Source: Cyanidioschyzon merolae
Taxonomy: Eukaryota
DNA length: 64,000 bases
Direction: 5' to 3' (one strand)
Assembly: GCA_000091205.1 (NCBI GenBank)
Contig: AP006493.2
This document shows, in pieces, positions 14,577 to 64,000 of this stretch (position 1 is the stretch's first letter; the number at the start of each line of letters is the position of its first letter). The translations under genes and the position numbers were made by a program. The notes below the pieces were generated by a model, which was given only the letters and a program-made list of their open reading frames with translations, did not search any database and was not told the origin of the DNA.

Positions 14577-15699
14577 CGCTTTATTCGACTTGTCAACAAC
14601 TCTTAGTCTCGTCGAAATTTCATTTCGCCTGCATACACTCTGCGAGGAGACACCAAAGTCTTCAAAAGCGCAGTCTTTCCGGAAAGCGCTGCAGGTACTC
14701 GATGAAGCGGCCGCAGGCGTGCCTTTGTAAACGAAGCAGCAGCAGCAGCAGCAGCAGCGCCGACTGTGCCAATTCGTGATCTTGGCGCAGATACACTACA
14801 GCCGCTTTTCGGGGAAGCGCGTGCACGGAACGAAAAGTCCTCGGAAGGAATGAGCGCTACGGACCCGCGGGCCGGCATCTGGAAAGCCAGTGGCAGGGAT
14901 CAGGTGCAGGCTGATTGGTCAGGCGTGGGTCCAAGGTGCACCGGGTAACTAGCACTGCCTGTTTTGGTCCTTGAGCGCTACCCAGTTCGTTTGAGAGCGC
15001 TCGCTGCACCCGGAGTCGCAGTACCCTCTCGAAAGTTTTTTCAGATTTATAGGTGAAAGATTAACGAAATCGATCAACCAAGGAAAATTACATCGCACTT
15101 TGGCACGAAAGAGTTGACAAGCAATTGAGAACCGCCGGCGGGAGGCTTTCCTAGCTGCTTTCTCAGGCAGCCTTGCGACGCGCGCGGAACTGCTGTGGCG
15201 GGAATTAGTTCTTCATAGAGGGTGTGACGACGACGAACACGCGAGATGCGGCGTCCTGGAATCGCGGATTCCCCGACGACCGATGTGTTCATCGTCGAGC
15301 GGGCTCCGCCCCAGTGGTATCCTGTGACGGAGCCATCCTGTCTCCGTCTGGCGTCTGCGCGAGTCTCAACATACATTCACACACACACACACAGACGGAC
15401 AGAATCGCAGGATCAACCGCGCTGTCATATCGTACCTGTTCTCTGTGTTCAGTCTGGTGACCATATCCCCATGTCAGACAGACATGGAACGGGTCCACTT
15501 GGCTCACTCGGGTATACATGGTTCATTTCCGGTGCCTCCAGGGTATCATCAAGGCCAGCCTGTACTTGCTTCTTCGCGAACGACTTCCTCATCCTCGCTC
15601 TTAACTCCGGCTTTGAATACGCCTGTCTCGACTTTACCTTCAGCCCCGTCGTCAGCAGTAGAAGGATGTTGATGGCAGCGGTATTGTGCCAAGTGCGCA

Positions 15700-16510
15700 G
15701 CTGCCAGCAGTTGCTGGCGCATTTCGCGCTCAGCAAATAGCTGCGATCTCCGGTTCACTTGCCACGTTCATCTCCTTTGGATGCAGCCTCGGTGCGCCAT
15801 TCGCAGTGGTGACACTTGCGTGTGGTCAGGACCTTCTATACGCCCGTTAAACCTCCTGCGCTTCCTCTGAGCGCCGCCCTTTGGCACGTGAACGCCTGCT
15901 TCGGCGCTCGGTACACGCCCTTGACTGCTACAGAGGATTTCCCTCAATGCCCTCTTGCGTTTGCGAGCCTGGTTCCGTACGCTTCCGTCCGAGGCGTCTC
16001 CTGGTCGATCCGCTCAGCGAGGACTCTCTCCGGTGCACGTGCCAGCGTATGCGCTTCCATTCGATAGGGGGGTTTTGGAACGCGATTTTGACCATGACGA
16101 AACAAGTTCCAGAGGGAAAATTCAGGCCGGAGAACAAGTCGAGAAAAACCGATCTGTCTACGACTCCTTCTCGCAAAGCGGTGACGCATTCTCTTTTGCA
16201 GGCAATCGCTGCGATAGCACAAGTCCGAGTCAACCACCTTTTCCATTTAAAAAGAGAATACGCGAGCCTCTGGGGGCATATCTTTGGCCGGCATTAAGCT
16301 GCTACTGACGAATGCCGTTTCTTCGACGGCCGCAAACAGAAGAAATTTTCTCTCTCGAACGGAATCGATGATTTGGCGTGACAAGTTCAGTGAATATCGG
16401 CATGAACTTGTGAACAAATCTTCAAGGAAGGATGTCGAGTCTGCTCTTCACCGTCAATCCAGCGTTGCGGATTTGTGCGCCAGCTAGTTGCCTTTAAACA
16501 GAAAACTTGA
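15700..16510 (+). pseudogene. Copy 1 of a diverged ~0.8 kb repeat/gene family (frameshifted: the CGQ... block and the HDETS...SGDAFSFAGNRC block are in different frames)
   Basis: Block homology at nucleotide and protein level with 28560-29340(-), 39740-40460(+) and 53225-54020(+). Examples: 'ccatgacgaaacaagttccagagggaaaattcagg', 'gcaaagcggtgacgcattctc', 'tcgaatgccgtttc...ttcgaacggaatcg...tgaacaa...gttgcctt-aaac'. Confidence 0.45.
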
Positions 16511-17221
16511 AGACTGCGTAATTCGAGCATGCGAAGCGGTGACCATTTGCATCTTATATCCATACACTGGACGATGGCATCGGTACTTTGACAAACCCCG
16601 AATGGATGGCGCTATGGATCATCCTTAATCTGTTGACGTTTCGAGTTCCAGCGAGACAACCTCAAACGAGCGACTCCAAGACGACGAACGAAACCAGTAG
16701 AATGAACAGATGAATCCGTGAGCCCTTCGTGCTGCACGTCGAATCTCGAGCGTATACATCCAAAAGCATACTCGGGAAAATCTCCAGGCGGGAACAGAGC
16801 CAGCAGTTCAGTGATCCATTTGAATCTGACAAGGATGTAGCAGCCTCTGGAGAGGCGTCGACATTGAAGCTCCGCTGAACGCCAGCAGTCGCGCACCCCG
16901 ATAGACCTCATCCGAATCGTCAATCCAACACCGTACACAACACAAGATACAGCGAGCTCCACTGGAGGCCGCTCCGAACCAAACAACCCCAAAGCGCATC
17001 CAAACGCTGAAATGTGCCCGCAAGGGTCATCTCGGGCACTTATCATGCCTCTTGAGCCGAGCGCGGGTACGCAGGCGGCATACTGTCGTGTCCGCGTGGC
17101 GTCCGGTGAGTCGCCCGTGCACCACCGCTGCAGAGGCATTCCCATCAGTTGACAAATGCGCACACGTACACAACATGTCGTGCATCCCAGCATCGCTCAC
17201 GAGCGCAAGAAGGCTCCGCGG

Positions 17222-19681: not shown

Positions 19682-21209
19682 GCAGCGCAGTGGCTACAAA
19701 AGCAACGGCCCCTTCGGCCCAAACTTAAGGTTTGTTACACTGTTACTGGAAAAGGAAAGGCCAAACACCGTCCAGGGTATGCGTAACTAGTTTCCAGAGC
19801 TTCACTGGTGTCGTGGAAACGACGCAACTGACTGAGACTTGCCTAACCGCACGAATAGCCGCACATGATCGTCGTGCAATCGAAGCCGCGTGCTTCAAGA
19901 GTACCAGTTAGAACTTAAAGATACCTATTTGTTCCAAAAATATCTATTTTTGTCAGATCTGTTCAGAAATCGTCGGATGACGTTGGTTCAATAAGCGCAA
20001 GCCTACAAGCACTGAGCATCTGCTGGCGTGTACCCTCGATCCACTCAAGCGCTGAACTTGTGAGGGATGTGCCTATCCTGGACTCTCGCCGTAGCGCTGG
20101 ACTATTAGGCCACCGCTGCAAGCGCCATACAAAGAGGGAATGGCACCACGGTACCTTTATTGCCGTTTACACGAAACTCGCTCGTGACTTCTTGGACCAG
20201 CGGCGGTCGAAAACCTCAGAATCGGACTCCTTGGATCGCGAACTCACCGTCGTTCAGGAGTTGCGTTCTGAACCTATCTCGTAGGCGCAATTTAATTGCT
20301 GCGCATTTGCGGAGAGTTTCGTCTTGCATTGTATACAGTCAAGTTGCACGATAGACTGCGCTCTCTGTGTGTTTTGAAGCACAGATCCCGCCGCAAGTCT
20401 CGCGAGATTATGTTGAAGAGATGCGTGCTTAGAGAACACTGTTACGGGAAAGCGCACGTCACCTGAGTATCTTTGAACATTTTCCAGTGAATTGCGAGAT
20501 TGCTTCCACTGAATACGGAGAATGCGATTTCCAGTGCAGCAGCAGAACATCGAACAATCGAGTCTGTCGGGTCCAAGATGCGCGCTTTTTACAGCACGCG
20601 CGCCATTCTCTGGTTCAATATTCGTTCTCGAACAATAGTTGCAACAGCGTTGAGTTAGTCTACTGGTTCACTATATCCGCGTTGTACTAAAACGTAACAC
20701 TAGAGTGCAGGCCCTGTTCCTGGGTGTCTATTTTTTCGCAATTTTTTCAAATGTCCAGCCTCGACATTCGAAGTTCAACAGTAAGCGCTTCCGGGATCAT
20801 TGGTTCGTTTTGCGGTTTTCAGAGGTCTTTCTCGGAGGGGGTCATTCGAGGTTGTGGCGCTGGAATTCGATACGTTACCCGAATGAAGATGCTTCACAAC
20901 GATTTGCAAGAGAGATGTGTTACACTGCAGATATCATGAATTAATCTGCCCGTGCATGTACCCGTTCTTCTCCTTTCCTTACGTGTAGCATGCTCAAATT
21001 CAATATGCTTCAAATTTTGGATCTTTGTGGTTCAAGCTAGCTCATGGGTGCAGCCATTCGAGCCGCTGCGTTGACGAGCAAAAATACGCGACGTTGTCCA
21101 TTGTCGACTAGTTCATGAGCTCATGCTGGGCGTTCACTGGCTCCATCACGTCAAGCTATCGATTCCTTTCGAAAGATGAAATCATCCTCTCTGTATATCC
21201 ATCGACGAA

Positions 21210-21415
21210 ACATTATTCGACAGCAGCGTGACACCGCTTCCGGGATATGCCCCCAAGGGCTCCCGTCCGTTCTGTATCCATGGAAAAAGGGGTTAGTCTC
21301 GGACATCAGTCATCGCGGCGATTTTCTCAAATGGAGAGTGTCTCACCACTTTATACGAAACGAGCGTGGATGGATTGGAATTCCTCGACTTGGTCTCTAG
21401 CCTGGATTTTCCTTC
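21210..21415 (+). repeat. Copy A of a ~200 bp dispersed element (candidate Pol III small RNA gene or SINE-like repeat)
   Basis: About 80% identical to 61672-61874, same orientation. Conserved blocks 'caagggctcccgt...ttctgt.t.catggaaaaagg', 'ggacat.agtcatc', 'ggattggaattcctcgacttg.tct.tagcctggatt'. Ends in a TTTT run. Confidence 0.45.
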
Positions 21416-22199
21416 AGGTACTTGATTCCTGATGAACAATATCAGGTTCAACTAGTCCTGGATCGAATGGGACAGCGTTCGTTAGCATTTGCAGAACAAG
21501 CAGTTTTCGCGGAGGGGACCGCCAAGGACAAGTCAGTGTTCGTAAGCTATAGCACCGGGTCCGGAAATGGAGGAGGGTATCGAGTTGAGCCCTCTGTATC
21601 CGTCAAGGGCCTGTACCGAGCGAAGATGCGAGGCAACGCGCGGAATAAAGCGGATCGGGATGGAGGAGATATAACGGACATACACAGGAACTCTTGAGCA
21701 TGACCAAGTTTCACCGCAGCTAGGTGCGCATCGAATCTATATAGAATGCAGACGGAAACGGCAAGCAGAGCGTAGATCGCGTCTTCCGCGTGTGCATGAA
21801 AAGAGATGGCAAAAGCCGTTCGATGCGAAAACGGCAGATGAACACTGCCAGCAACATCAGCCGACTGCTGATAAAGAACCTGGCGAGACAAGCGCGACCG
21901 GTGTATTTAAAGCCAGGTACAAGAGACAGAAAAAGGAATCATTCAAGGAAAAAGTCTGCAAACCCGGCGTTGATGACAATGGGAACAGATCCAACCTTTA
22001 TAAAGTATGCCCCTGTTCGTGAACCTGTTTCGATTTATTCTTCTATGGGTGCCTGTCGGGTGCTGCAGTGAATGACGCGCGCACATGCCTGTCTCGCGGT
22101 GTCTCGGTTCCTAGAGCGCACTTGCCCGCAAGTACTGGCATGCTCGTATGCATTCCACATGCGATGCGCTGAGCCTCAGAACAGAGCACCTCGATGCAG

Positions 22200-24125: not shown

Positions 24126-24576
24126 CGCACGGCTTGCGTACTGGGGTGCTCACACGCGCCGGTGGCATTCACACACGCTCAGACAGACAGCGGCGCATGG
24201 CGTAGACGGCTGCATCTGCAGCAGGGCGCGTTGGATGGCGCGCTGCTGGTGCGCCACAGGGTGTCGATAGCGAGGCATCCAAGGATGTTTCCCTAGACGC
24301 TGTCATATCGGATCATGGAAAGCTATTATCGTTCACCAATGACAGATGATAATCAATCCTAGTGTGGATTCAGGGCGCTGCAGTTTTCCTGGATGCCTAT
24401 TTCATACCGTACCAGTATCCCGCTCCAGGACGCAATCGAAATGCCGCACCTCCGGATCGCTAGGATTCTTCTCACTGAAAGTCTGCAACGTTTCAATAAG
24501 AGGCGCATACAGTGTACGACACGATTTACCTGAATGATCGCGCGACACATAAAGCCACTGGACGCTCCGAAATCAT

Positions 24577-25030
24577 GAGATCGTTCCCAGAGATCTCGAA
24601 TGGGGGTTTTCCAACGCTCGATAGACACAGTACATGCATGTGTTCTTATTGAAGAAATGTAAGCACGAGATCGTTCCCAGAGATCTGGAATGGGAGCTTT
24701 CCAACGCTCGATAGACACAGTACATGCATGTGTTCTTATTGAAGAAATGTAAGCACGAGATCGTTCCCAGAGATCTCGAATGGGGGTTTTCCAACGCTCG
24801 ATAGACACAGTACATGCATGTGTTCTTATTGAAGAAATGTAAGCACGAGATCGTTCCCAGAGATCTGGAATGGGGGTTTTTCCAACGCTCGATAGACACA
24901 GTACATGCATGTGTTCTTATTGAAGAAATGTAAGCACGAGATCGTTCCCAGAGATCTGGAATGGGGTTTTTCCAACGCTCGATAGACACAGTACATGCAT
25001 GTAAGCGCTCTTATTGAAGAAATGTAAGCA
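24577..25030. repeat. 90-bp tandem array, ~5 copies, inside IR arm 1
   Basis: Unit 'gagatcgttcccagagatctcgaatgggggttttccaacgctcgatagacacagtacatgcatgtgttcttattgaagaaatgtaagcac' recurs at 24577, 24667, 24757, 24847 and 24938. Confidence 0.9.
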
Positions 25031-26117
25031 TAGCGAGCTTCTCAGCTTTGATTACTTCGTGATCTGCCGTTTGCGCGGCTGACAGTGCACCATCTCGCGC
25101 ATGCAGCTCTGTTTCGCACCGTTCTTGTCTGTCGGTTTTTCAGCATGCACCCGCACTCGTAGCGCATGTACGTCGTGCTGAACGCACCGACAGGAAGCGT
25201 GCGGCATAGGCACCTGAGCTTATTGGACACTCCCGTCGAAGCATGAGCAGGTCCGCGTCCTTTGCGCGCTTCTGAACGTCCAGCGTCATAGGCTGCCGCC
25301 AGGAAACGATTGGACCTGCCGGGGATTTTCGCTTGGAATTCACCGATAATGCCGGTGAATGCGAGTTTCCCGCCTCTGTAGAAGCGACACCGTTTGCGAC
25401 CTCAGCGTAGTACCAAGGACGCCCACCAAAGACCCTCCACACGATGCATTTGGTCGCTCATGGACGCTCGGAATAAATTATAGGAAGCATAACCCTCGGC
25501 TCCATACGGTGCCTGGAGCGTCGACTTGGGTCCTGATGCCGCCACCGCTCCCCTTGCTGTTCGTATGCCTTCTAGCGCCCATCACGTCCGACTGCCGCTC
25601 ATACCGAGCGATTGAAGAGGTTGAACAGGTTCATCCGCTTTCCGTTCAGGTTGTGACCTCCGCCATCTTTCAATAGATAATCGGTGGCGGTGATGATTTC
25701 CCCCCAGCGGGGATCGACGCACGGCACGTGACCTTTCCCTTCATGTGCCCGGATCCGTTGGATATGCGTTTCGTGGCTCGACGCAGGTTTCGGATTCACA
25801 AGCGTCACAAAGACCGTCGAGCTTGGTATCCCGTCGGTCGCCGTCGTCCCTGGAAACGAGAAATCTTGAACGAGCGCCGCCAGTGCTCTTCGTGTGGCTG
25901 CTCGGACGCTTCAGGCTTACTCGCAGAGAGCAGCGGCACCGCACAGAGGAGGCCATCCAGTACACAAGTGTCTACTGACGCGCGATTCACCTTGATCTGG
26001 CATACCGAGACCACGTCGAATAGACGCGTGACGTGCACCGGACGGTCGGATCCCGAGATGGGGGCTGCTCAGCTCTGGAAGCACCTGTCCAGAGAAACGT
26101 GGTAGCACAGGAGCCAA

Positions 26118-26121
<4 letters not shown>

Positions 26122-26182
<61 letters not shown>
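26122..26182. repeat. (CAGG)n microsatellite, ~15 units, inside IR arm 1
   Basis: Direct reading: aggcaggcaggcagg... run. Confidence 0.9.
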
Positions 26183-28671
26183 TGCGCTTCAGCCACTTTT
26201 CGGATACGATATCTGCAGGTGCGACGCCGAGCACTAAACGATATCGTCGGGCGATCTGGGGCGATTCTGGCTCTCGTTGCTGCATTTTTTTTCGAAGTCG
26301 ATACCAGTTGGAGCTCTTGCGTATCCAGCTCGTCATTTGCCTCCATCGATATCCAAGAATCCCGTCAACCTATCTCCCCTGTTCTGGACCACTGAGGTGA
26401 GGCTGCGACATGCAGAGGGCGCGCTGCATGGGGCGCTCGACATTGGCCGGCATGTGGTTTTTGAGGTTGGCCCCAGACATGCCGGCACCTGCGCTGCGGA
26501 CGTTCTCATTACAGACGCCGGCCTACGAAGCGTCACGGCATGCTGGGTGGCGTGTTCTCAAACCCTGGATGCCACGACCAGGCCGTATTGCATCTTGTTT
26601 TCTGGCCATCTGTTGTCGCACGAACGTTTCATCGAAAGGTTATGAGAGGAATGTAGACAACTGGCGGCCGTGCGTCCAGCCCTCCGATGAGCAGATGCTT
26701 GACGAGGCGCGTCTGGGCGAGCGCAGCTGGGCGAGCCTTCGTTGAGTACGAAGCTGCGCGATCCTGAATGGCGTCTCGCATCTCACGGCTTGACAGATTC
26801 TCGCGGGTGGTGCATTTCTTGGGGAAGCGGTGGCATCGCTTTGAGACAGATCTTGTCGCTCCGACATCTGTTCCTCCCCGTCGCTCCTTACCCTATTCTC
26901 GGAAGGCTCTTTCTCTGGTTCGCCCGGTGGTCGCTTTTCTTTCTCTAGTTCCTGGCAGGCGCCCTGCATTCCATCTCTATCGAGCATATCTGTATGTCGT
27001 TCTCCCAGTGGAGACTCAGGCGCACTGGGTGGAAGGTTGCACTGAAACTCGCCCTTTCTATGTATGTATCGACTACTCCTCAAGCACCTCTCCATCGTCG
27101 TATCCGCCGAGAGCTCGCCCACGGACGGAAGCGCGCCTCTCAGCTCCCGTCCGGGCACGAGCAGCGCGGCGACGCATCAGCTCATGGCTTGCAAAGGTGG
27201 AGAATGGCTTCTCCAAGAACGGTGTCACAGATGCGGACGGCTCGTCGAATGAGTCGTGAGCATCCATCCATGGTTCGACAAACTGAGCAGGCTCCTTCAG
27301 CTGGACGGAACCAGGACGAATAGGCTCACGCAAACATCAGCTCAATGCCAAGCTCAGCTGCACAATCCGTGGCCGCTCTTGCGTGACAGAGGGCGACCTT
27401 GTCCAAGAGCGTATCAGAAGAATGTGGAAAGGAGAAGCCGAAAAGCGCTTCGACGCATCGTGAGGAGTTGAGTGATCACGGCTCTTTTGCTATTTGGTGT
27501 TGGCGACACCGAAGCCTCGCACCCAGGCCAGCTGGTGCCGTCCTGCTCGCTAATCTCCTTTGTAGGAATAGCGATTTGTCCCTCTTTGAGTAGGCATTCA
27601 CAGGTGTACCATCCCTCCAGATTCGAGTCTCAGCGATTGAGACGAACACCTCACGCTCCGGTAACAAACGTCCACGCGTCCATACGAGATCAATAGAGTG
27701 TTGTTTATTGCACGACAGTCTTCACGACGAGCGTTTTTCTCCTGTGTCTATCAGCGTGTCTTCATCAGCATTCGTATGAACCACACGGAAGCCTCACATC
27801 CTATGGCTTCCTTCGCCGTGTTCCTAGTAGAATGCATGGAATTCAATGGATTATCCAGGACACAGTCGTCTTGGTGGCGTTCGGTGACTTCTGTTTCGGG
27901 TGCACGATGCTCAGGACAGAGACGAGAACAGGAGCGCTTCATCCACTTGCGTATTAAAAAGTATCCGACATGTACGAGAATGACGATTTTTCGCAAACTA
28001 GCAGTCACAGCACCAAGTGTGCACGAGATTCTACTCCAATGTACAAAATATATTCCTTTTATAGTATACCTGCGAGAAAGACAATCAAATACGAATCAGG
28101 CGCTCTGGCACTAGAATCTCAGACTTCGATACACTTTGTCACAGAATACTAGGAGAGATGCATGCGATGACGTTTCCCCACGCACACAGAGATTATCATT
28201 CGAAGCAAGTGCCAGATTAAAATTCGAGACTGGGGTGTCCACGCTGTCTTGCCATTCGATTTTTCCAGCCATTTTTCAGAGGCACAGCCTCGGCATTCGA
28301 GGTGCAACGATGACGGCATGGGAATTCATACGTAGAGTTAGAATTCTCAGTCGTTATTTAGGAGAAGCATCTTCTACGCTGCGTCATGGGAATTCGTCAC
28401 GACACCGGACTGTCTATCTTTCGCGAAGCCTTCGAACAAGTTTTCATAGCATGACCGATGCCATTATCCAGTTCGTACGTACAGGTCCCTACTATTCTTC
28501 TTACCTCACATGCAATATGGTCAAACCACGCATTACTCAAGTTTTCGATTTTTCTGTTCGACGGCTACTCGTGGGCGCAGCATTACACGCAGGGGCATCG
28601 CTGACGAAAGCGACTCGGCGTCGTCACTCGAAGACTTGCTCACAAGCTCATGCCACAATTCACGTTACGTC

Positions 28672-29448
28672 TCACGCAGAGTAATCGATGCCAGTCGGAA
28701 CACAAATCCTCCTCTCTATTTTGCCATTCGCTAAACGGGATTCGATCGCAGCATGGTGCCTCCGACTAGCTACGCTCTCAGAGGATCCCGTCTCTTCACT
28801 TTCCTCAGAGAAGCTTTGTAGAGTCTGACATGAGTCATTACGGCGATTATTTTTCGTGAATCGCGCGTCACTGCTTTGCACGAAGGGGTCATACGAGGTT
28901 AGAAATATCCCAACGTGTCCTCCTGCCTGAAGTTTACTTCCTGCATTTGTTTCATCATGGAAAAACATCGCATGCCACAAATCCTCCTTCAAATGCAGCA
29001 GCATGCGCTTCCATATGCAGCTGACGGCATACTCTCCGAGCGAATTGCCTAGAAAAAGCCAGTGATCGTGGGGTCCAGCACTGGGCGCGGAAGCAGAGCA
29101 GGGTATCGAGCGGAGCCGTCTGTACCGGTCAGCCGCACACCCCGAGCAGAGATGCATGTCTAAAAGAGCCACAGGGCGATCATCGTAGTGCCCGGTGCGC
29201 TGGGCGTTCGGGAACACCTGACCGCAACCAAGCTCCATCGTTACGAAAGGCGTATCGAGACAGGTTGCGAAAAAGATGATCATGGCAAGTGAAGCGTAGA
29301 CCACAATTTCCGCCCGTGCATGAACTGTGTCGACAGCTTCTGGAAGCTGCGTGATTGGGACTTGAACGCCGCCATCAACATCATTCGACTGCTGACAACG
29401 GATCTGGAGAGACCGGAGAGACCAACGTGTCTGAGGGCAGAGATACAA
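28672..29448 (-). CDS. Hypothetical 258-aa protein. The only copy of the ~0.8 kb repeat-gene family with one uninterrupted reading frame; lies in the IR spacer
   Basis: A continuous ORF contains all conserved blocks found split across frames or stops in the other three copies (…LGCGQVF…HDHWLFLGNSLGEYAV…FFHDETNAGSKLQAG…QSDARF…ANGKIERRICVPTG). Function unrecognised. Confidence 0.35.
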   Translation of the reverse strand: MYLCPQTRWSLRSLQIRCQQSNDVDGGVQVPITQLPEAVDTVHARAEIVVYASLAMIIFFATCLDTPFVTMELGCGQVFPNAQRTGHYDDRPVALLDMHLCSGCAADRYRRLRSIPCSASAPSAGPHDHWLFLGNSLGEYAVSCIWKRMLLHLKEDLWHAMFFHDETNAGSKLQAGGHVGIFLTSYDPFVQSSDARFTKNNRRNDSCQTLQSFSEESEETGSSESVASRRHHAAIESRLANGKIERRICVPTGIDYSA

Positions 29449-30096
29449 GAGATAGGGAAAGGAAGCAATGACAAAAAATGACTGATATGCGTAGTATTTA
29501 TTTCAGCAAAACGAGACCCACACTTTAGCTTGTATACCTGTGTTCGTCGACCTTTTCCATGAAACGCTGATGTACGTGTAAAGGGCCGCTCTAAAGGCGG
29601 GAAAGAACCAAGGGCGCAAAGCATCTCTTTGGAGTCGAGAGCGCCGAATCCACTCATACATGAAATGTTTGTATTCGAGGCTCGGAGCGACTCGGTCTAG
29701 TCGAACAGAAGAAACCGATGCGTTATAGGGAAACTTTTTGGAGTTACGTTTGATATTTCTTGTCAGAGAATACTTTGTGTTGATTGCCATACAAGTGCAT
29801 CGGGCTCTCAGCTGAACGTACGCGATCCAGCTGCCGAGCATCCAACGGAACAGACAACGCAGTTTGTCGACAGAAGCCACTATACGCCGGAATCGGGCGC
29901 AGCGGCTGTGTAATCAACCTTTTGAGACTCCGCTTGGGAAACCGAGTGTCCTCCGAAGTACGACGCGCTGCTACTTGCTTCTGGGGCCGCTTCAGGAAAA
30001 ACTGCCCCCTAGCTGACGGCGACGCGACCTGGGCTCCAAACTTCAGCGTTCCCTGGGAGCGTTTCGGCTAGACGATCCTCATTCGCCCACAAGCCC

Positions 30097-30339
30097 ATGG
30101 ATCTTCTGCCTGTGCTGCGATCCCAGGTTCACGTTCAAACGACCGACGGGCGCCTCCTAGCGGGCAAGCTGTTAGCGTTCGACGCTCATAGCAATTTATT
30201 ACTCAGCCACTGTACAGAACGTCGCGGGGAATCAGCGAAACGCTACTTGGGCATGGTGCTGGTGCGCGGGGAGCATGTGCTCGCAGTTATCACGCCCAGA
30301 ATCACGGAAACTGAACAGAAAACTGCCGCATCTGAATGA
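30097..30339 (+). CDS. Sm-like protein (LSm8/SmB-type Sm fold)
   Basis: Sm1 motif (TTDGRLLAGKLLAFDAHSNLLLSHCTE) and Sm2 motif (RYLGMVLVRGEHVLAV). 80 aa. Confidence 0.7.
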   Translation: MDLLPVLRSQVHVQTTDGRLLAGKLLAFDAHSNLLLSHCTERRGESAKRYLGMVLVRGEHVLAVITPRITETEQKTAASE

Positions 30340-37690: not shown

Positions 37691-39739
37691 TATGTGTCGC
37701 GCGATCATTCAGGTAAATCGTGTCGTACACTGTATGCGCCTCTTATTGAAACGTTGCAGACTTTCAGTGAGAAGAATCCTAGCGACCCGGAGGTGCGGCA
37801 TTTCGATTGCGTCCTGGAGCGGAATACTGGTACGGTATGAAATAGGCATCCAGGAAAACTGCAGCGCCCTGAGTCCACACTAGGATTGTGTATCCTTGGT
37901 CATTGGTGAACGATAATAGCTTTCCATGATCCGATATGACTGACTATATGGCCTCCATTTGTGTGCTGGTATCCCGCACCAACCCTAATCTGAGCATGCG
38001 CCGGCATCCGCATACTGAGACAACGGTCTTCTGTCCGTGAGCAAACCTTACAGAAGAATATTCAGGGAATGTTCAAGTAGAGGACAGTCCTCCTGCACTT
38101 GGCAATCCGAGTTGCATACGAAGGGAGCGAACGCCAAGGCCAACGCGGCACCCCCTGCAGGAAAATTCAAAGCTGAACATATGCGCAGAGTTTGTGGACA
38201 AAATTTTTCCCGGATCCGCGTCCAAGCTTTGCATCCCCTACTCATCGTGATCGCTGGGTCGGCAGCTTTGCATAACGATAAGCTGGTAGGTAGCCCCGTT
38301 GGACCGCCGTGCCGTAACAGCGCTGAAGCTGACGGCATCAGCAGCGGCGGTGGCAGGCCTACCAAAAACCCAACCTCGAACTACTGATGATGATGATGCA
38401 AGCACAGAGCTTGGCATCTGGGACAGCGTCACTTTCGAATGTGTCCCGATGGCAACCGCCTGCCCACATGTGTTGACGTACCTTGCAACCGATTACAGTA
38501 ACAGTCGTGGAGACGCACGTCCAGGAGTCGTATGCGTTGACGCTCTCGGCGTTCAACGCAGGGCGTCCACCGCGCTACGAAACGCTGTTGCTTGCCATTG
38601 CATGGTAACGGAGTGCCGCTCCCGGAACCCGGCAACCGTATGATTTCTGGCGACTCTCCGAGTTCGGTTTCTATTCAGACGCTCGCTGACAGCGGGAGTA
38701 GGGGTGAGCTGAGGTGCGCTCGGCAGCCACGAAGCGCTCTCTCAGTGAAGGACCCTCCGTGTACGCGTATGCGAGTTCGTTTCGGGTAGACCGATTCGAT
38801 CGAGGCGGACTTTAGAACTCCGGATACACACGGCAGCATCCGACGACACGGATCGGAGATTTAGATTACCGTAACCCCAAGGACCGTTGGATCGAGGCAG
38901 AGTTTTCTGGATGCCTTGACCCTACCGAATTCCAGGAAAGAGATCTCAGTTCCATCACAGACGCTTTGTCGATGCAGCAGGCCCTAGTCTGTCCTCCGCA
39001 CTCTAATACAAGTATGACGGGTTCCATGACCGAGCGACACTGGATGGACAGCTGTCGCCGCGGACGCCGCACAGAGACAGCGTGGTGGTTTGGCGATGCT
39101 TGCGCGGGTGCCTTCTCACGGCATGCATCGGGAACTACAAAAAACGACTCCGAGCGAAGTCGTGAAATGCGAGACGGGAATTTGCAAATGAGTGCTGTAC
39201 CAGCATCGTCATGACGCAAAGGGTGAGCAGCATTTGAGCTGCTTCAGATTCTAAGCACCGTAGAAAACGCAGATGAAATCAGAAGCGAGTATGAAACACT
39301 ACCGGGCGTGCAGCGCTTTCCCCAGACGCGAAGAAACTCGGATCCATTAACGTCAAATTGTAACAAGTCCTTGCAGCGCATTGCGTCTCACATGCACCCC
39401 GAGCACTGCACGGCGGAACAGCCATAGCGCGCCCCTTTTAAACCCGTGCCAGAATAACATACACCAGGTCGTCAGCGACGAGCGTACACACTGACCTTTG
39501 GGGACTCCTTAACAGTATCGTCAGGTTGTTGCCGGCTTTTTCTGTGACGGCTTCATAATCCTCTCTCTTATTCCCGACTTTGAACATAGTGGTCTCTCTT
39601 GTCACTCTGGCAGCGTTGTCAGCGGCCGACGGATGTTGACCGCTGCCGTAAAGTCGAGACTACGCCGGTTAAGGCTGTTGCCAATGCGTTTTATCGATGG
39701 ACGGAAGTTGCGATCTATGCTTTGATTGCCATGCTCACC

Positions 39740-40460
39740 ATCTTTGTATCCAGCCTGGTTGCGCCCCGCACACCGCTGACACTCGACTGTGGTCAGGTGT
39801 TCCAGTACGTCTATCGCGCATCTCATCTGCTGAGCACCGCCCTGTGATACGAGAACGCTCGTTTCATCGCGCGGCACGTGCCCTTTGACAGGGACAGAGG
39901 GCATCACTTGATGCATTCCTCCATTTCCCTGCCGAGCGCCGTACACCACGATCACGGACCTATTCTGGGCGACAATTTAATTGACAGGTACGCTGTCCCA
40001 TTCCATGGAGGATTCGTGGAACACAATAATGTCCATGATGAAACAAGTACCGTAAGGAAACTCCAGGCTGTTCATCAACTCGAGACATTTCGATCCGCCT
40101 CTGGCCGCTCCATGCAAAGCGGTGACGCATTCTCCACTGCGGGCGATCGCTGCGTTGACTAGCGTCCGAATCCAAGACGTTTTCGCATGGAAACACGAGA
40201 CAGGAGAGCGTCTGGAAACGTATCTCGTGACACGTATGATGCTGCTGTGGGATGCTGCTTCCTGAAGAACCATAAAAACGAACGGATTTGTATTTTAAAC
40301 ATTAACAAGTTTAAGACGTGGGAATTCCAGGGAAATCTCGGCGTGAGCTTGTAAACAAGTTGTCAAGTGACAACGTCCAGGTTTTTTCGTCGATCATGTA
40401 GAATCGCGAGTGGCTGCACCCTCGTGTTGCCTTGAAAAAGAGAAATAGAAAACTCGAGAA
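39740..40460 (+). pseudogene. Copy 2 of the ~0.8 kb repeat/gene family (in-frame stop after ...LDCGQVFQYVYRASHLLSTAL)
   Basis: Protein-level blocks CGQVF, SAVHHDHGPILGDNLIDRYAV, HDETSTVRKLQA and QSGDAFSTAGDRC in the same frame as the intact copy. 3' nucleotide block 'gttgccttgaaaaagagaaatag'. Confidence 0.45.
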
Positions 40461-41051
40461 ATCAATGATCTGAGCATGGTACACGTAAGAAAAGGTCAAG
40501 AGCGGAGGCTCATACGTATGAAATGGAACGTGATATCGGTAATTTTACGAACCCTTGTTCCGCGACATCGTGAATCATATCGACTCTGGTGACGTATCGA
40601 ACTCCACCGGCAAACCGTCGAAGCAGGCGCTCCATCAAAGCGGCCGAGCATCCCCATAAGACGTCTCCATTGGTAAGCGCTCATTCCTGCACCAGGAATG
40701 TCGTGACTGTCCATCTACACAGAGTTCGGAAACAAGATCGACGTTCAGGAAGAGAGCGAGTCGCTCAGTGTTCTGTGCCAGTCTGAAACGGGTGCAGGAG
40801 TTCACGCATGCACACATATCGATACCAGCTGCTGCTAACTAGCGCAGAAGGAATGCCCTCGACTGCGCCACGAAGCCGGCATCGCGTGGAAACCTTTTCC
40901 TTGCCATGTCTGAGCATGGGTACGATTTCATCTACGCGAGTCGCGTACGCCATACGGCACTGACCGGCAGGGTCTCTAGGTTTGCTCAGTTTACAGAGTC
41001 TTTCGCGAGAAGCTTCTTGGATGGCGATCGCCAGTGACGACATAGACGCCT

Positions 41052-52704: not shown

Positions 52705-53224
52705 CAGCAGCTCAGTTGATAAAAGCAGAGCGATTTATCGATGCAAACGTTGCTGCGGAGGCTGCGGGTGTGCCGCGGTACCTGCCGAGGTCTCGCTGGC
52801 CGTGCTCACACACGAGCAGATCCCTCCAGCGTCCGCTTGGAACGACGAAAGCTTTCCACCAAACTGGGCATACCCGAGTGCATGGCGGTTATCAATATCC
52901 GGGAAACTGTGCATCATGCGGCACCAGAGCGGCGCTTGTCACCGGCCATTACCCGCAGGTTCCTGCTGGATCGCTCGATACGGCATTCATGTCAGCATAA
53001 AATGGAACAAGCGCTCTAACTCGAGCCTGCACACGAAATCTTGGGACGCTCGTTCCACTGTGATCAACAACCGCCGTTGCATACATTTCTCCTGTTTCGT
53101 TTTTCGCTCTCTAATTTCCGGCTCTAGATCCATTGGTCACTCTTTATCGTCCGGCTCTGCTGCTGGCATTCAGTGGATGATGCTGGTATGGTGCTAGTTC
53201 AGATTTCGCGATAATCCGATGTTG

Positions 53225-54020
53225 GTCACGCGTTTCACGCACAGGGAGTAGTTGCAATCTACGATTCGTTTCCCATTTTGGACGTTCTTTGCATGCAGCT
53301 TCGGTGTGGCATGCCCAGCTGTGACATTTGACCGTGGAACGGTGCTCGGGCATTTGCATCCTATCTGCTTTTCGAAGCGCTGCAATGAAGCGCGTGAACG
53401 ATTGCTTCTTCGCTCGGTACATGCTCTTGACAAGCACAGAAGGTAGCCGTCGATGTGCGCTTCCGTTTCCGCGCCCAGTGCGGTTCCCTAGGATCAAAAA
53501 TTTCTCCAGGGGGAATGCCCGCAGCGAATTCCCTTTCTGCTGCATGCGTAAGCGCACGCTGATCCGTTCCATGGAGGAGGTTTGGAGCAGGTTATTTTCC
53601 AGGATGACACGAGTATCGGAAGGAAAATTCAGGGTGGCTAACAAATCGAGAAAATCGATTCCTTAGCACATTCTCCGTACAGATCGCTGGCGGGCGCTCC
53701 ACTGGAAGCGATGCCAGTGACGATCAGAGTCCATTACTCGCTTCCACGCGAACAGATGAGACGTGAGTCACTGGGAGCGTATCCCCTGTGTGGTATCATG
53801 CTGCTGTCGAATGCCGTTTCAACGATGTTTACAATGAGCGGAGGATTTGTATTTCGAACGGAATCGCTTATTAGACGTGACATGTTCAGCCAACATTCGA
53901 CATGAGCGTATGAACAAGGCGTCATGCGATGCTGTCGAAATATATATTTCCGCCATCAATCATGCAGTGCGACTAGCTTCGCCCAAGCGTTGCCTTGAAA
54001 CGAAAAAATCGGAAATATGA
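53225..54020 (+). pseudogene. Copy 3 of the ~0.8 kb repeat/gene family (premature stops)
   Basis: Shares 5' block 'tttgcatgcagcttcgg...gcgcgtgaacg...cgctcggtacatgctcttgac', middle 'gacacgagtatcggaaggaaaattcagg', and 3' 'gtcgaatgccgtttc...ttcgaacggaatcgcttatt...tgaacaaggcg...gttgccttgaaacgaaaaaatcgg' with copy 1. Confidence 0.45.
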
Positions 54021-55079
54021 AGCATGCATGCCCTGAACGTATCACGAGTACGGAAAGCTGAGGCATGCAGACTCGTACGTTTGAATCAGAAAGAACTATC
54101 GGTTAGTTCACGAGCCCTGGTTCGAATGCGTACAGCGGTATCTCGATCGAGACAACGTGGTAAATTTCAGCAGCAAAGCGTCGAAGCAGCCACTGCGCAA
54201 ACACGACCGAGAACTCCTTGGACTACGTAGATATCCTTCGGCCCCTATTGCTGTTCTGAGAACATCGAGCAGTTCCTCAGTAAAAAGTTCGGGGAAAAGC
54301 GCAGGCCAGGATGAACACGAGCTATGCTGAGTTCCATTTTCATCCGAGACAGGTGTGCAGGTGGTAGGGTGTCGAGCCATCAGCGCAGTGCACACACCGC
54401 ACATCGTAAATGAGAAATCCGCTTCGAGCGACCACAAGCGTGTATCGTGACGCGCCTTCCGCACAACCTGTGCCTCGCGTCGTGCGCGGTTAGCTTCCAG
54501 AAAAGCGCGGGTCCGACACCCGCGATGTTCGATGCTCGCTTTGCCGCGAACGCTTCCTGGGTCGGTATGCGGACTTTTGCCGAAGGCCAAGGTGCGCCGT
54601 CGCGACTGGCGCACAAGCCTACAAACAAGTATCGGATGTTGCGTGGATTAGCGGTTTCCGAAAGATATAACCTTCATCATCGGAGCACTTCGCAGAGGGC
54701 CGATCCTGATAAAGGTGCACAAACTACTCGGCTATGCGCCGCAGCGAGCATGCTGCCACGCGGAAACGCTGCCTCTCGTTCAGGTTCTTGCAGTGTGCTT
54801 CCAGAGCGTCCACAGAGACGCAACGCCCGCCACTCGTCACAGACTGTAACTGGCATCAACTCGTCGTCGATCAATGTGGCATGCACCCTTTTTGAGAAAA
54901 ACCCCTTTGCCAAGAACTGCTGTGGATTCGCATGCACACGCTTTGGCTGCGAAACGTACCTGGTGCATGGTCTGGCTGCCTGAGGCGGCACGAGTCTGCA
55001 ACCACTGCGTTGTGCATGCCATGAGCGCAAGCGCCGCGGTCTGGTCCAGTTCGCTCTGGTCGCACCGAGGAACCGGACA

Positions 55080-60588: not shown

Positions 60589-61671
60589 TGCTTCACTCGA
60601 CTGGGCAGGCGTCGTACGGTGGTGCGCAGCGCCTCGCCCGGCGACTCATGCCGGCGTCGGCATGATTTGCGACAAATCGAACTTGCATCCACAATGGCTC
60701 TGCCACGCTGCGGGTTGTTTTCTCTTTCGTTGGCAAAACGTATCCTAGGTCCATGGAAACGTGTTGTCATCGAAAAAAATCGGCGGCTGCGACTGCCTCA
60801 GTGCCTGATGTGTTGTGCGTCGATCATGCGCTGCGCGAAAAGCTCGGCTCTAGCGCAAACGGTGCTGCAACTCGCTAGCTGGGACTGTTTCCATATCGGG
60901 TGTTGACATGCGGTTCAGTCATCAGCAGTGCCATTACCTCCTACTGGTCTTTTCTGGTGTACGATCGACTGATATCATTAGTGTCCGTTGGGTGGTCAAT
61001 TGCGATCACCGTTGAGAAAGCAGAGCCCCGCGCTCCTTTCCCGAGTTCATTCTGAATTCCGATAACCCCAGATCAAATTTCCAGTCAGGCGGCGGGGTAA
61101 GATCCGGCGATCCGTCGGGTGACTGCTCCTCCACTCTAATCGGACGGGAGCAACGCACTGAACGAATCGGTCTGATCCGGCCTGTCTGTCTTTCTCCAAA
61201 CTTTGCCTGTGATGTGCAGCATCGACAATTGAAATGCAGAGAACAGGGCTTATCAACGAAGATGCAGTTTTTGCATTTTCAGTCGTGTTTTCGCAAGTGT
61301 GCCTTCGGCGCTTTGTCTGTGGAATGCGGTACGTCACCAGAGTCATGATGGCTTGCAACGTCATCGAACAAGCGCATGTAGAACAACAGCTATCATGATT
61401 CATTTCGTAATCAGAAGCTTCCACTCCTCTCCTAACCTAACGTGGAGCATGTTCAAATCACGCATGCTTTCCAGTTCTCGGTCTTGCTGGCTCAAAGCGA
61501 AGCGCGGGCGCAGCACTTGGCGCCGCTGAACTGGCGACGAAAAAAATCGATGGCTCTCCTTGACGGCCTGTTTACACGCTCTTTCTGAAACTTTGCGAGG
61601 CTTGACATCTCAAATAATTGAATCATTCCAAAGCACATATCTTCCTCTCTTGTTGGCCGTCCGAGGGGCTG

Positions 61672-61874
61672 CATTCGACAGCAGCATCGTGCCTTGCTAC
61701 GTATATACGCGCAAGGGCTCCCGTATTTTCTGTTTGCATGGAAAAAGGTCTTAGACCCGGACATGAGTCATCACCACAATTGTCTCAAGTCGAACGTGTG
61801 CCACCGCGTTACACAAAACGGACGAAGAGTGATTGGAATTCCTCGACTTGATCTGTAGCCTGGATTCTGCTTCC
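61672..61874 (+). repeat. Copy B of the ~200 bp dispersed element, followed 6 nt later by a T8 run (61881-61888)
   Basis: About 80% identical to 21210-21415, same strand. Conserved 3' block 'gattggaattcctcgacttgatctgtagcctggatt' and a downstream oligo-T. Confidence 0.45.
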
Positions 61875-62242
61875 GATACGTTTTTTTTCTGACGGAAAAC
61901 GTCGACTTACTCAAATTCTGTATCGAATCGAGACGCCTACGCATGCGCTTGCAAAGAACAGCCTACTCGCCGAGCAGGTCGCCAAGAAGCGTCTGATCGA
62001 AGGGCACGGCACCGGGCGCGCAAACGCCGAAGGACATCAATCGCAGGCTTCTGTACTCCTCAAGGCCATGACCCGAGCAATAAAGCAAGCATTCGCCCAG
62101 GATGAAACCGATTTTGGAGGAGGAGAACAGGTGAATATATGGGAACAACTGATCTCATTCAAGAACAACCGCTGCAAAGGTCGCCTTGTCGTCGAATGCA
62201 CGTGCGAAGAAAATCGCATGCCATTCTTAGACCGCAAGCATC

Positions 62243-62470
62243 GCCTGTGCATCGGATACGTCAACAACAACAGCTCTACTAGCAGAATCGGGACGTGAAC
62301 ACCGCCTTCCACATCCGCTGACTACGAACAACGGAGCTGCATAGATAGGAAAGACCACCATACGGCCTGTGCATCGGATACGTCAACAACAACAGCTCTA
62401 CTAGCAGAATCGGGACGTGAACACCGCCTTCCACATCCGCTGACCACGAACAACGGAGCTGCATAGACAG
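62243..62470. repeat. ~123-bp tandem duplication, ~1.85 copies
   Basis: 'cctgtgcatcggatacgtcaacaacaacagctctactagcagaatcgggacgtgaacaccgccttccacatccgctga(c/t)(c/t)acgaacaacggagctgcatag' at 62243 and 62366. Confidence 0.85.
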
Positions 62471-64000
62471 GAGAGCCTGGCACATGGAAATTCAGATAGA
62501 TGCGACAAAACAACCATGCAGTCATGGCAAGTATACCCGCAAAGGCAGGCGCTGATGACACTCGGAAGAAACCCAAACTCTAGTGTGCACAGCCGAGTCA
62601 GCAGAGTCGACCCATTCCACGTTGGGCGGACAAGAATGTACCGCAGGCGCTCGTTCCATCACTGGATGCGCTGCTGCCGCAGTCGCTAAGAGAAGTGCGC
62701 GCCCAGCCCGCAGCGCACATCGATGAATACAGCGCTGTTGCGCCGCCGTCGATCGACGGACACGGCGTTGCGTCGACAGCCGCAGCAGCACCCGCAGCAG
62801 CAGCAGCACCCGCAGCAGCAGCAGCAGCAGCAGCCGTTACGCGTACGCAAGCGCAATTGCTGCTGCCATTACGTCTGCCTCTCCAGCGCTTTTCTAAACC
62901 GCTGTTGCACCTCGGTCAACAACGATTGTCCTCCTACCATCAAACAGGTAGCACCTTTGCTGCTCGGGGAACTATATATCATAAGATTCTGTTGTGAATA
63001 AACAGAAGTTGGGAGCACTCGAGCAGCACCTGGGATACGGGTTCGTTGAGCGGTGCTGCGGCATAACCGCAGGAACGGAGCACGTATGAGTGCGACCAAA
63101 GTCGAGCCAAACCCGGCTGCGGACTCTTCGCGATCCCTCGTAGTCATGGGGAGGCTACCTAGTGACGCTGATGCGGGGTCGCGCTCAACGCAATCGCTGC
63201 GTTCGGCCGAGGGGCGGCGGAAGGTGCTCCGCTGGCTCCAGGCGTCCGGTTGGTGGCACCCCGTAGACAAGCGCTGGGATAGCACGGCGAGCACGCTCGA
63301 CGACGTCGATGAACGTTACTTGTCTCCGTGTTGTTCTTCACGGAAAGTTGCTCGTGTGGAAAACGAGAAACTTACGCAACCGGGCAGTGGCGCAGAGGAC
63401 AATCCTCTTCAGCGTCATCTTTGCAAAGACGGTGCCCTGTCACCGAACTCGAGACCTTCAAACTGGGAAACACTGGATTTCCCGCAGCTGCCAGCGCACA
63501 TACTATCGATTTTATCGCGAGCGGAGGAGGAGCTGATGAAGAGCAGCCATAAGAACAAGAGCGTGGAAATCGGAGACACCGTATCACTGGACCCTGATGA
63601 TGCTGACTGTCGATGCCGCGATCAATCCGCTCAATCCACGACTGAAAGCCAAACACCAGAGAAAGCGAAATGCACGGCGTTGATACCACTAGACCATAAT
63701 TCCGAGGCCTTCGATCCTGAAGGCGATCTCGGTCACACATCAAAAGCGGTTGAAAACGAGGCATGCCCTGCGTACTTGCCGGACGCGAGCTCACGGGTAT
63801 CAACACCAGCCCAACCGCGAAGGCGTTTAACAGGTGCACAGCGACGGCGATTCGATCGGGCATGTGAAGCTGCCCAGCAACTCTTGTTTCGACACGATTG
63901 GAAGTCTGTATCACAACAAACGAAAGAAACCGCCATGATATCAAGAACCGAGGTATCTCCGCAGACTCCGAATCTGTCGCCGTTGTCTGCAGACCGCCTG

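Follow-up and report, generated by a model that had tools for sequence, protein, structure and literature searches.

A family of diverged repeats in the nuclear genome of Cyanidioschyzon merolae 10D most probably (we put the probability at close to 0.9) represents a non-autonomous, internally deleted transposon of the mariner+Fanzor1 type, which belongs to a kind already described (Bao & Jurka 2013). The DNA analysed was a stretch of 64 kb, referred to here as the window. Each copy joins the beginning of a transposase gene to the end of a gene for a Fanzor1/TnpB-like protein, and the consensus is bounded by terminal inverted repeats with TA at both flanks. A 258-codon open reading frame present in one of the copies, which a sequence-only reading of the window had taken for an intact gene, runs on the opposite strand and is an antisense shadow of the transposon sequence, not a gene.

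Copies and ends of the repeat family

Searches of the region against the window with blastn and tblastn recovered the family far above chance. Six full-length copies (c1 to c6) of about 1.38 kb each were found, all of them intergenic and sharing 63–75% pairwise nucleotide identity. The sequence-only reading had described four regions of about 0.8 kb at 65–75% identity. The repeat is real, the range of identity agrees with ours and all four intervals lie inside copies, but the copies number six rather than four, and the actual unit is about 1.38 kb long with sharp ends. A consensus (cons13) was derived from 13 copies, i.e., the six of the window and seven from metagenome contigs, and the window copies are about 72–75% identical to it. 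With the 13-copy profile, nhmmer gave E=0 for all six window copies, the exception being the split 3' segment of c6 (8.8e-48). Architecture and length were uniform in all 14 copies seen.

External proteins matched individual window copies on what we call the sense strand, i.e., that of the transposase and Fanzor frames; they were the intact 317-aa DDE_3 protein P0031 and the Fanzor-like proteins P0038 and P0041. Copy c1 (15466..16839, - strand; nhmmer hmm 1-1377, E=0) is full length and decayed, 74.7% identical to cons13, matched on the - strand by P0038 and P0041, and 99% identical to its orthologue L011. Copy c2 (20673..22051, + strand; hmm 2-1377), also full length and decayed, had been overlooked in the sequence-only reading; it is matched by P0031 at 20813-21452 (E=2e-8) and by P0041 at 21419-21622 (E=8e-15). 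Copy c3 (28203..29580, + strand; hmm 7-1378) lies in the spacer of an inverted repeat and carries the 258-codon frame on its antisense strand. Its net indels relative to the 13-copy profile are almost nil in the nhmmer alignment, and its + strand is matched by P0031 at 28454-28585, by P0041 at 28951-29148, and by P0038 at 29068-29241 and 29299-29442. Two further full-length, decayed copies are on the - strand: c4 (39440..40795; hmm 2-1378), where residues 18-230 of P0031 match 40657-40010 (E=1e-10), and c5 (52984..54356; hmm 2-1377), where P0038 and P0041 match 53279-53506. The second overlooked copy, c6 (61131..62639, + strand), is full length and was aligned in two segments (hmm 2-1229 and 1113-1378); it contains an internal tandem duplication of 122 bp (62243-62353 and 62365-62475; direct-repeat family D6, 97%).

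In the 13-copy alignment, every copy has the same two boundary columns, at which conservation rises abruptly from about 0.55 to about 0.72. The ends are thus sharp and common to all, while the flanking contexts are unrelated. In cons13 they form terminal inverted repeats of 26 bp, with 23 of the 26 positions matching between ends and an alignment score of 16, whereas the best of 5000 internal controls scored 3. The inverted repeats are degraded in the individual window copies and best kept in c5 (...AAAATGGAAC at both ends). At the right end, TA follows directly in 7 of 13 copies; the left end is preceded by TA in 3 of 13 and by CA in 4 of 13. The TA flanks have decayed in the copies; in the majority consensus, TA stands on both sides. 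On the contig carrying P0031, TA is likewise followed by a similar inverted repeat.

A transposase fragment joined to a Fanzor1-like fragment

Read on the strand opposite the 258-codon frame, cons13 consists of two joined gene fragments, a transposase at the 5' side and a Fanzor1/TnpB-like protein at the 3' side. The transposase part matched Pfam DDE_3 with 39 bits (cutoff 28.6; E=9e-10), the match ending at position 117 of the 146 in the profile. Pfam HTH_33 (E=1.3e-4) and HTH_Tnp_Tc3_2 matched as well, and NCBIfam IS630 gave E=8e-18 with 64.9 bits, under the family cutoff of 100. The same part is 32% identical to P0031 over 98% of the consensus length, and blastp aligned it to the mariner transposase of PUl-1 (3e-6). 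The motifs DE(T/S) and DNxxxH are present, and the first and second catalytic Asp are retained. The region of the third catalytic residue (PPYDPDANPIE in P0031) has no counterpart downstream in cons13. A reading of 'EYSPRGSP' as the remnant of this third motif was rejected, since DNA homology to the Fanzor gene already spans those bases. From these sequence matches, the transposase is classed as IS630/Tc1-mariner type and as a truncated gene, cut off just past the second Asp and predicted to be non-functional. The helix-turn-helix (HTH-HTH-DDE) layout, the inverted repeats of about 26 bp and the TA flanks of cons13 resemble those of the IS630/Tc1-mariner (ITm) superfamily, from which cons13 differs in that its transposase ends ahead of the third catalytic residue.

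The Fanzor fragment comprises the last ~180 codons, with the RuvC-II Glu, a C4 zinc ribbon and the RuvC-III motif NRDLNAAINI. It matched Pfam Cas12f1-like_TNB (PF07282) with 27.8 bits (cutoff 26.3; E=2.9e-6), the NCBIfam TnpB model matched its C-terminal end (E=0.0018), and blastp gave 2e-7 against the Fanzor1 of PUl-1 and 9e-6 against CMe-1. The C-terminal signature of Fanzor1/TnpB, [TS][TS]xxC4-zinc-finger...RD (Bao & Jurka 2013, PMC3627910), is found in cons13 as 'WEHLTTTKCHRC...CMKC...NRDLNAAINI'. The fragment is 83% identical to P0041, a protein that has a RuvC-I motif (GLDPG) upstream, at residues 66-70; only residues from 153 onward match any copy. By this comparison, the RuvC-I Asp and the N-terminal/WED-REC half are missing from every copy, and DNA homology to the P0041 gene begins abruptly at cons13 nt 791, 18 nt past the second-Asp motif. 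Cons13 thus shares with TnpB/Fanzor nucleases the C-terminal signature, in the form 'HLTTTKCHRC...CMKC...NRD', and a PF07282 score above the cutoff; unlike them, it has the last third only, and the copies are pseudogenes. A phmmer search with the consensus and the Fanzor-like protein of locus L025 against PDB sequences gave no meaningful match and did not reach a solved Fanzor structure; it is the sequence motifs that assign the fragment to Fanzor. An initial view that the sense strand derives from Fanzor over its full length was dropped after the 13-copy consensus revealed the transposase frame.

Taken singly, the window copies have decayed too far for Pfam: of their stitched translations, that of c2 alone scored (DDE_3, E=0.003), and the domain calls therefore rest on the consensus and on external homologues. 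Remnants can nevertheless be placed in c3. Its transposase-derived part, mapped from cons13 84-790, occupies approximately 28282..28985 (+ strand) and includes HTH remnants and remnants of the first Asp (near 28726-28742) and second Asp (CFIM.., near 28948-28965). The Fanzor1/TnpB-like 3' part, placed by motif remnants and homology to cons13, extends over approximately 28986..29526 (+ strand) and includes 'REHLTATK' with the RuvC-II Glu (near 29211-29228), a zinc-ribbon remnant and the RuvC-III remnant 'RDWDLNAAINI' (29350-29382). The + strand open reading frame 29320-29481 reads ...RDWDLNAAINIIRLL.

We infer that a mariner+Fanzor1 composite gave rise to the family through an internal deletion, and that the family was mobilised in trans. 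As reconstructed, the element would start with a TA flank and the 26-bp terminal inverted repeat (CACCCGTGTCAGATTAAAATGGAACA), followed by the first 700 nt of a transposase gene of the IS630/Tc1-mariner type, with two HTH motifs and the first and second catalytic Asp. The deletion junction would lie about 10-30 nt past the second Asp (cons13 nt 774-790), and beyond it would come the last ~180 Fanzor1 codons, the inverted repeat of the other end and again a TA flank. Because the third catalytic residue of the transposase and the RuvC-I half of Fanzor are absent, such an element could encode neither enzyme. A full-length relative would have supplied the transposase, which would have recognised the terminal repeats and inserted the element at TA sites through a cut-and-paste reaction, each copy drifting after insertion to about 72–75% identity with the consensus. 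A full-length parent, with a complete transposase and a complete Fanzor within these inverted repeats, was not found among the loci examined: L024 ends 300 nt past the transposase gene, and L025 has a Fanzor-like gene without an upstream transposase.

One could also suppose that the 1.38-kb unit is the complete element, its master having encoded a short transposase and a TnpB-like zinc-ribbon/RuvC-III protein, as a fusion or in tandem, and having perhaps been autonomous. Classic mariner elements measure 1.3–1.4 kb, a single architecture and length is indeed seen in every copy, and in cons13 both halves have nearly uninterrupted frames of their own. The truncated DDE_3 match, the lack of a third catalytic region, the absence of the RuvC-I that the close relative P0041 possesses and the abrupt start of the Fanzor homology all speak against such a master, as does the fact that the two halves are in different frames, and we consider it very unlikely. 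The frame difference itself fits a deletion, but may also be due to an indel error in the consensus. Still less probable is an origin outside transposons, in which segmentally duplicated intergenic modules (regulatory or non-coding RNA) would be kept for a host function. All six copies do lie between genes, and interspersed repeats of C. merolae are reported to be transcribed (Nozaki et al. 2007, PMC1955436), but ends, inverted repeats and TA flanks common to all copies in unrelated surroundings argue against it; divergence is uniform and neutral-looking, and the density of variants in c3 equals that of its surroundings. Rfam and tRNA scans of the window gave no matches, and the 3' 224 nt of the consensus folded no better than shuffled sequences in a guide RNA analysis (z=-1.14), neutral decay making covariation uninformative.

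The antisense open reading frame

The frame at 28672-29448 (- strand) is open over 258 codons from a TTG start, or 203 aa from the first ATG, as had been reported; a coding signal is what it lacks. Pfam returned nothing for it, in agreement with the earlier remark that no domain could be recognised, and it is not in the NCBI annotation of strain 10D. Among 5.8 billion proteins, there were no homologues beyond strain orthologues that are 97% identical. Mismatch rates were equal across codon positions 1, 2 and 3 (0.38-0.44 at each; majority fractions 0.754/0.756/0.756), which contradicts the claim that the similarity between copies is strongest in one frame. Codon periodicity was also tested over windows of 255 columns, every copy serving in turn as the reference; nominal p<0.01 occurred a few times, in phases that did not agree, and there was no overall signal. 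Population variants in the frame were 13 nonsynonymous and 1 synonymous changes, and their density (1.8%) was in the range of the flanking non-coding DNA (0.9-2.1%); the corresponding values were 0% for the neighbouring LSM gene and 0.7% for a 538-aa gene. With equal mismatches and a 13:1 ratio of variants, purifying selection in the proposed frame was not observed.

The antisense strand of cons13 contains an open stretch of 250 codons (485-1234), whose codons are in phase with those of the Fanzor part, and residues 8-162 of the 258-aa sequence are 58% identical to it. Antisense 'shadow' open reading frames occur opposite GC-rich coding sequence. The present frame resembles them in being a long stop-free stretch that is the codon-aligned complement of a former open reading frame; it differs from them in that the sense frame is a dead transposon gene fragment, so that neither strand now codes. 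For the most part, the frame is the codon-for-codon complement of the Fanzor frame and meets few stops, the sense codons TTA, CTA and TCA being rare; in c3 it stayed open by chance. The conserved 3' tail, supposedly non-coding, is made of antisense images of transposase motifs, as can be read from cons13: tcgaatgccgtttc is the reverse complement of the (D)ETAFD codons, and gttgccttgaaa that of the codons for 'SRQL' in the HTH.

The sequence-only reading had proposed a lineage-specific family of genes for proteins of about 258 aa, of which the one in the inverted-repeat spacer would be intact and the others decayed paralogues. We regard this as exceedingly improbable. The frame is open not only in c3 but also in the five metagenome alleles examined; these were found via proteins derived from the frame, so that their openness is partly an effect of ascertainment. 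In tblastn, the other copies match the 258-aa sequence with an amino-acid identity of 25-34%, a level expected in any frame at 65% nucleotide identity, and this with codon positions that diverge equally. The predominance of nonsynonymous variants at the density of flanking DNA, the restriction to 97% orthologues and the absence of both a domain and an annotation argue in the same direction, as do the transposase and TnpB-like motifs that can be recognised on the other strand. Two observations that the proposal itself had named as counting against it, namely uniform nucleotide conservation and a match to the internal sequence of a transposon, were both made. What holds of it is that the repeats descend from protein-coding sequence, although the coding strand is the opposite one, and its passing mention of an unrecognised mobile element was borne out; that strand encodes a transposase fragment and a Fanzor/TnpB-like one.

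Relation to known elements and to the genome of C. merolae

[quoted passage not shown] The two parts of cons13 align to the two proteins of PUl-1 (E=3e-6 and 2e-7) with an identity of 22-27%. In contrast to these three transposons, the present element is 1.38 kb long and has both genes truncated and joined at a single junction, which makes it non-autonomous; the family is multi-copy, old (about 25% from the consensus) and has a red-algal host.

C. merolae itself has a Fanzor1 family, CMe-1A, which is 3169 bp long, encodes a 734-aa Fanzor1 and is without terminal inverted repeats or transposase (Bao & Jurka 2013, PMC3627910); it is probably the 'novel interspersed repetitive element' or 'WSV486 repeat' of this alga (Nozaki et al. 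2007, PMC1955436). CMe-1A and the six-copy family share the genome, a dispersed distribution, old age and a Fanzor1-type C-terminus (NRDFNAAINI in CMe-1A). We first assumed that the family was CMe-1A (the 'WSV repeat') and rejected this by direct comparison: blastn with CMe-1A (word size 7, E<0.01) gave no match to the six copies, its sole match in the window being 49470-49585, and at the protein level the identity between the copies and CMe-1 is just 23-25% over 145 aa. Each of the two arms of the window's large inverted repeat is taken up by a diverged CMe-1 relative. The WSSV Fanzor1 SWv-1 (from the supplement of Bao & Jurka), which would correspond to WSV486, matched CMe-1 with 2e-22; in tblastn it gave nothing below E=2 in the window and E>=0.07 with the family consensus. 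A search for repeat annotations in the supplementary data of the H3K27me3 paper gave nothing of use.

C. merolae is cited as nearly transposon-free; the published repeat census lists 0.7% transposons and 5% 'WSV repeats', and MITEs are reported absent. Fanzor-linked elements, i.e., the six-copy family and two CMe-1-like Fanzor1 elements, make up about 24% of the window and most of its long intergenic spacers. As the six-copy family is undetectable with the WSSV protein that appears to define the published class, the census may undercount old DNA transposons. That a numerous class of transposons is missing from it altogether seems to us rather unlikely, and it would be more speculative still to suppose that the element, which kept the Fanzor 3' end and the terminus next to it, is a guide-RNA-only hitchhiker. 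In TnpB/Fanzor systems, the guide RNA is encoded at the Fanzor 3' end and the adjoining terminus, and a Fanzor acting in trans could conceivably protect or home a non-autonomous element that retains them. If the missing class were real, the 'simplest eukaryotic genome' could be much more transposon-derived than stated. The main value of the present finding is as a correction: the apparently intact orphan frame in these diverged repeats should not be annotated as a gene. The family also offers a red-algal example of the capture of Fanzor by mariner-type elements, whose interest for the natural history of RNA-guided nucleases in eukaryotes is modest.

Copies and termini of the repeat

Searches of the window with blastn and tblastn gave six related regions. 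The sequence-only reading was right that a repeat family is present, but had counted four copies in a 0.8-kb unit; a six-way alignment showed homology across about 1.4 kb. Pairwise nucleotide identity between copies, put at 65-75%, was measured at 63-75%. In a profile search, with a profile built from the later alignment, every window copy was full length: c1 (16839-15466, -), c2 (20673-22051, +), c3 (28203-29580, +), c4 (40795-39440, -), c5 (54356-52984, -) and c6 (61131-62639, +), the strand quoted being that of the transposase/Fanzor sense described below. c6 contains an internal 122-bp tandem duplication (62243-62353 and 62365-62475, 122-bp period, 97% identical), which covers the RuvC-III-like region, 'QNRDVNTAFHIR' being present twice. 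When metagenomes were scanned with the consensus protein, 15 loci were recovered. They included the c1 orthologue and gave seven more paralogues, which share about 65% identity with the window copies; an eighth was found by profile search 2 kb from one of the seven. On one metagenome contig (L017), two copies (2004-3382 and 5395-5829) lie 2 kb apart, which echoes the high local density of the 1.38-kb family in the window.

In an alignment of 13 copies (six from the window and seven from metagenome contigs), conservation shifted abruptly at the same two columns. The consensus termini are inverted repeats (CACCCGTGTCAGATTAAAATGGAACA and CACCCATGTCAGCATAAAATGGAACA, agreeing at 23 of 26 positions), an agreement far exceeding that of internal controls. 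The consensus has TA at both flanks, and TA is found 3' of the right end in 7 of the 13 copies, as a putative target-site duplication.

Transposase and Fanzor sequences in the consensus

On the strand opposite to the proposed gene, the six-copy majority consensus translates as '...KCHRCEG...CMKC...NRDLNAAINIRRLL', which is, judged by its motifs, the zinc ribbon and RuvC-III signature of TnpB/Fanzor proteins; it matched Pfam PF07282 (Cas12f1-like TNB) over the curated cutoff. In the 13-copy consensus, the frame from the ATG at nt 84 ('...FGVAPSTLCRW...VSRQLVGAAIRAAGLTTKK...LFMAIDETAF...CFIMDNIAFHK') reads as an IS630/Tc1-mariner transposase. It matched Pfam DDE_3 (E=9e-10, 39 bits, profile positions 4-117 of 146), HTH_33 and HTH_Tnp_Tc3_2 as well as NCBIfam IS630 (E=8e-18). 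A second frame, from nt 791 to a stop near nt 1328, contains 'YRMEQRALARAADRVLAEGIAQKKPVIVGYGTGRGNGGGHRGEPSVPVKGMYRAM...VDIWEHLTTTKCHRCEG...CMKCVDNSRKLRNRDLNAAINILRLL...'. The individual copies were too decayed for Pfam matches.

Independent proteins supported both halves. P0031, an intact 317-aa DDE_3 transposase (E=2.7e-25), is 32% identical to the transposase consensus across 98% of the latter, and P0041 shares 83% identity with the Fanzor part. Both halves also aligned to the two proteins of PUl-1, an oomycete mariner+Fanzor1 element (E=3e-6 and 2e-7), whose sequence was taken, like those of CMe-1, SWv-1 and the CMe-1A consensus, from the supplement of Bao & Jurka 2013 (PMC3627910). The external proteins P0031 and P0041 matched individual window copies directly, on the sense strand every time. 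DNA homology between the 13-copy consensus and the P0041 gene starts at nt 791, 18 nt past the second-Asp motif (759-773), and the RuvC-I motif of P0041 (GLDPG) lies upstream, about 90 residues before the earliest residue that any copy matches.

P0031 is encoded on a 65%-GC contig (L024, 1-1380, ENA ERZ1793633) that starts with TA and CACCAGTGGCAGCTCAAAATGACAAC, an inverted repeat resembling that of the window family, followed by the IS630-like transposase gene and a second ORF running off the contig end. The closest fuller relative of the consensus Fanzor half is a short Fanzor-like gene (L025, 5001-6200, JGI 3300031217; about 380 aa, single frameshift) with GLDPG, WEHYTT, a zinc ribbon and NRDFNAAINI. 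Its neighbours are genes for Skp1 and peptidase M16, and no transposase gene precedes it. No full-length parent (transposase plus Fanzor) was found around these two homologues.

The 258-codon open frame

The open frame at 28672-29448 (-), antisense within c3, does exist, with 258 codons from a TTG start or 203 aa from the first ATG. It had been proposed as the intact member of a gene family, for which database, divergence and population tests gave no coding signal. Among 5.8 billion proteins it matched a single cluster, 97% identical and consisting of strain-level metagenome orthologues; as this cluster had no NCBI member, the ORF was not called in the reference annotation. A Pfam search of the ORF gave no domain. 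The constraint claimed at the protein level was also absent, since mismatch rates between copies were indistinguishable at ORF codon positions 1/2/3 (for example 0.376/0.405/0.388 and 0.44/0.401/0.444). Windowed codon-phase tests between copies gave no consistent phase.

The population sample consisted of five metagenome contigs orthologous to window 27.7-32.3 kb (99.0-99.7% identical). The ORF had 14 segregating sites, 13 nonsynonymous (598 sites) and 1 synonymous (179 sites), and its variant density was 1.8% versus 0.9-2.1% in flanking non-coding stretches; that of a 538-aa gene was 0.7%. As a built-in control for selection, we used an 80-aa LSM-domain gene (30097-30339, +) in the spacer of the large inverted repeat: 0 of its 243 sites varied among the five alleles, in surroundings with 1-2% segregating sites. 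Because the contigs were reached via ORF-derived proteins, stop-bearing alleles would be missed. The gene hypothesis fails despite this bias in its favour.

Each of the conserved blocks that had suggested a protein mirrors a sense-strand motif in antisense. 'CGQVF' is the complement of 'EHLTT' (RuvC-II), 'HDH' that of 'VIVG', 'HDET' that of 'CFIM(D)' (second Asp) and gttgccttgaaa that of the HTH 'SRQL'. 'LLSNAVS' and tcgaatgccgtttc, the latter a block formerly assigned to a non-coding 3' tail, are both complements of '(I)DETAFDSS', the first-Asp motif of the transposase. Antisense to the consensus, 250 codons (nt 485-1234) are free of stops, in codon phase with the Fanzor frame; ORF residues 8-162 align to this stretch with 58% identity. 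Openness is thus largely inherited from sense-ORF codon usage, and the frame survived in c3 by chance; the longest frames in this direction in the other copies have 104-148 codons.

Other Fanzor remnants and the nature of the element

Two published descriptions of C. merolae repeats are relevant: a 3.2-kb interspersed element (253 copies) whose truncated ORF weakly resembles WSSV WSV486 (Nozaki et al. 2007, PMC1955436), and the Fanzor1 family CMe-1A (3169 bp, about 150 copies, without inverted repeats), reported in a study that lists Fanzor1 in WSSV too (Bao & Jurka 2013, PMC3627910). That the six copies are this CMe-1A/WSV486-type repeat was ruled out, as the CMe-1A consensus did not match them at the nucleotide level, nor did SWv-1, the WSSV Fanzor1, which itself matches CMe-1 at 2e-22. 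They thus represent a different family.

The CMe-1 protein matched the arms of the large inverted repeat (24291-27946 and 34603-37951, about 3.66 kb each, 99% identical), and not the six copies. Both arms are copies, inverted relative to each other, of a Fanzor1 element that has decayed: in each, residues 117-272 and 474-618 of CMe-1 find matches at 25-32% identity, with in-frame stops, and the CMe-1A consensus finds none at the nucleotide level. If the arms share the same stops, this would point to an element that was dead before it was duplicated. Tandem arrays of a 90-bp unit (24571-25061, five copies, left; 37511-37671, two, right) occupy their outer ends, the expected place of the 3' end of a Fanzor1-like ORF. 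Elsewhere, a 116-nt stretch (49470-49585) is 74% identical to CMe-1A consensus nt 12-126, the part common to CMe-1A and TE-N2_CMe, and adjoins an exact 83-bp tandem duplication (49170-49330). Fanzor-linked remnants make up about 24% of the 64 kb (about 8.4 kb in the six copies and 7.3 kb in the arms); published figures for the C. merolae genome are 0.7% transposons and 5% interspersed repeats.

The long ORFs of the window encode ordinary eukaryotic proteins (PDI-like thioredoxin, adenosine kinase, Rap-GAP, TrkH, eIF4A, TBC, MFS), with adenosine kinase (BAM80416) and eIF4A (BAM80423) matching the C. merolae 10D chromosome record exactly. The genes have few introns and are separated by 2-7 kb spacers. 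Long CAG/GCA runs recur (52671-52711, 62764-62837 and others; direct-repeat families D2 and D5), some of them inside ORFs of more than 200 aa.

The element most likely arose by internal deletion from a mariner-type transposon that carried a captured Fanzor1 gene, the arrangement of PUl-1 and PGv-1 (Bao & Jurka 2013, PMC3627910) being the one proposed for its parent. With neither the third transposase catalytic residue nor the Fanzor RuvC-I half, the element is non-autonomous. It may have been mobilised in trans, and the uniform length and intact termini of 14 of 14 copies fit such cut-and-paste mobilisation. RNA folding of the consensus 3' end detected no guide-RNA-like structure. The distance of the copies from the consensus (25-28%) and a divergence without codon phase are what long neutral decay would leave. 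In sum, the repeat family exists and the proposed gene does not; the element belongs to a known kind of transposon, of which it is probably a new or unreported member.
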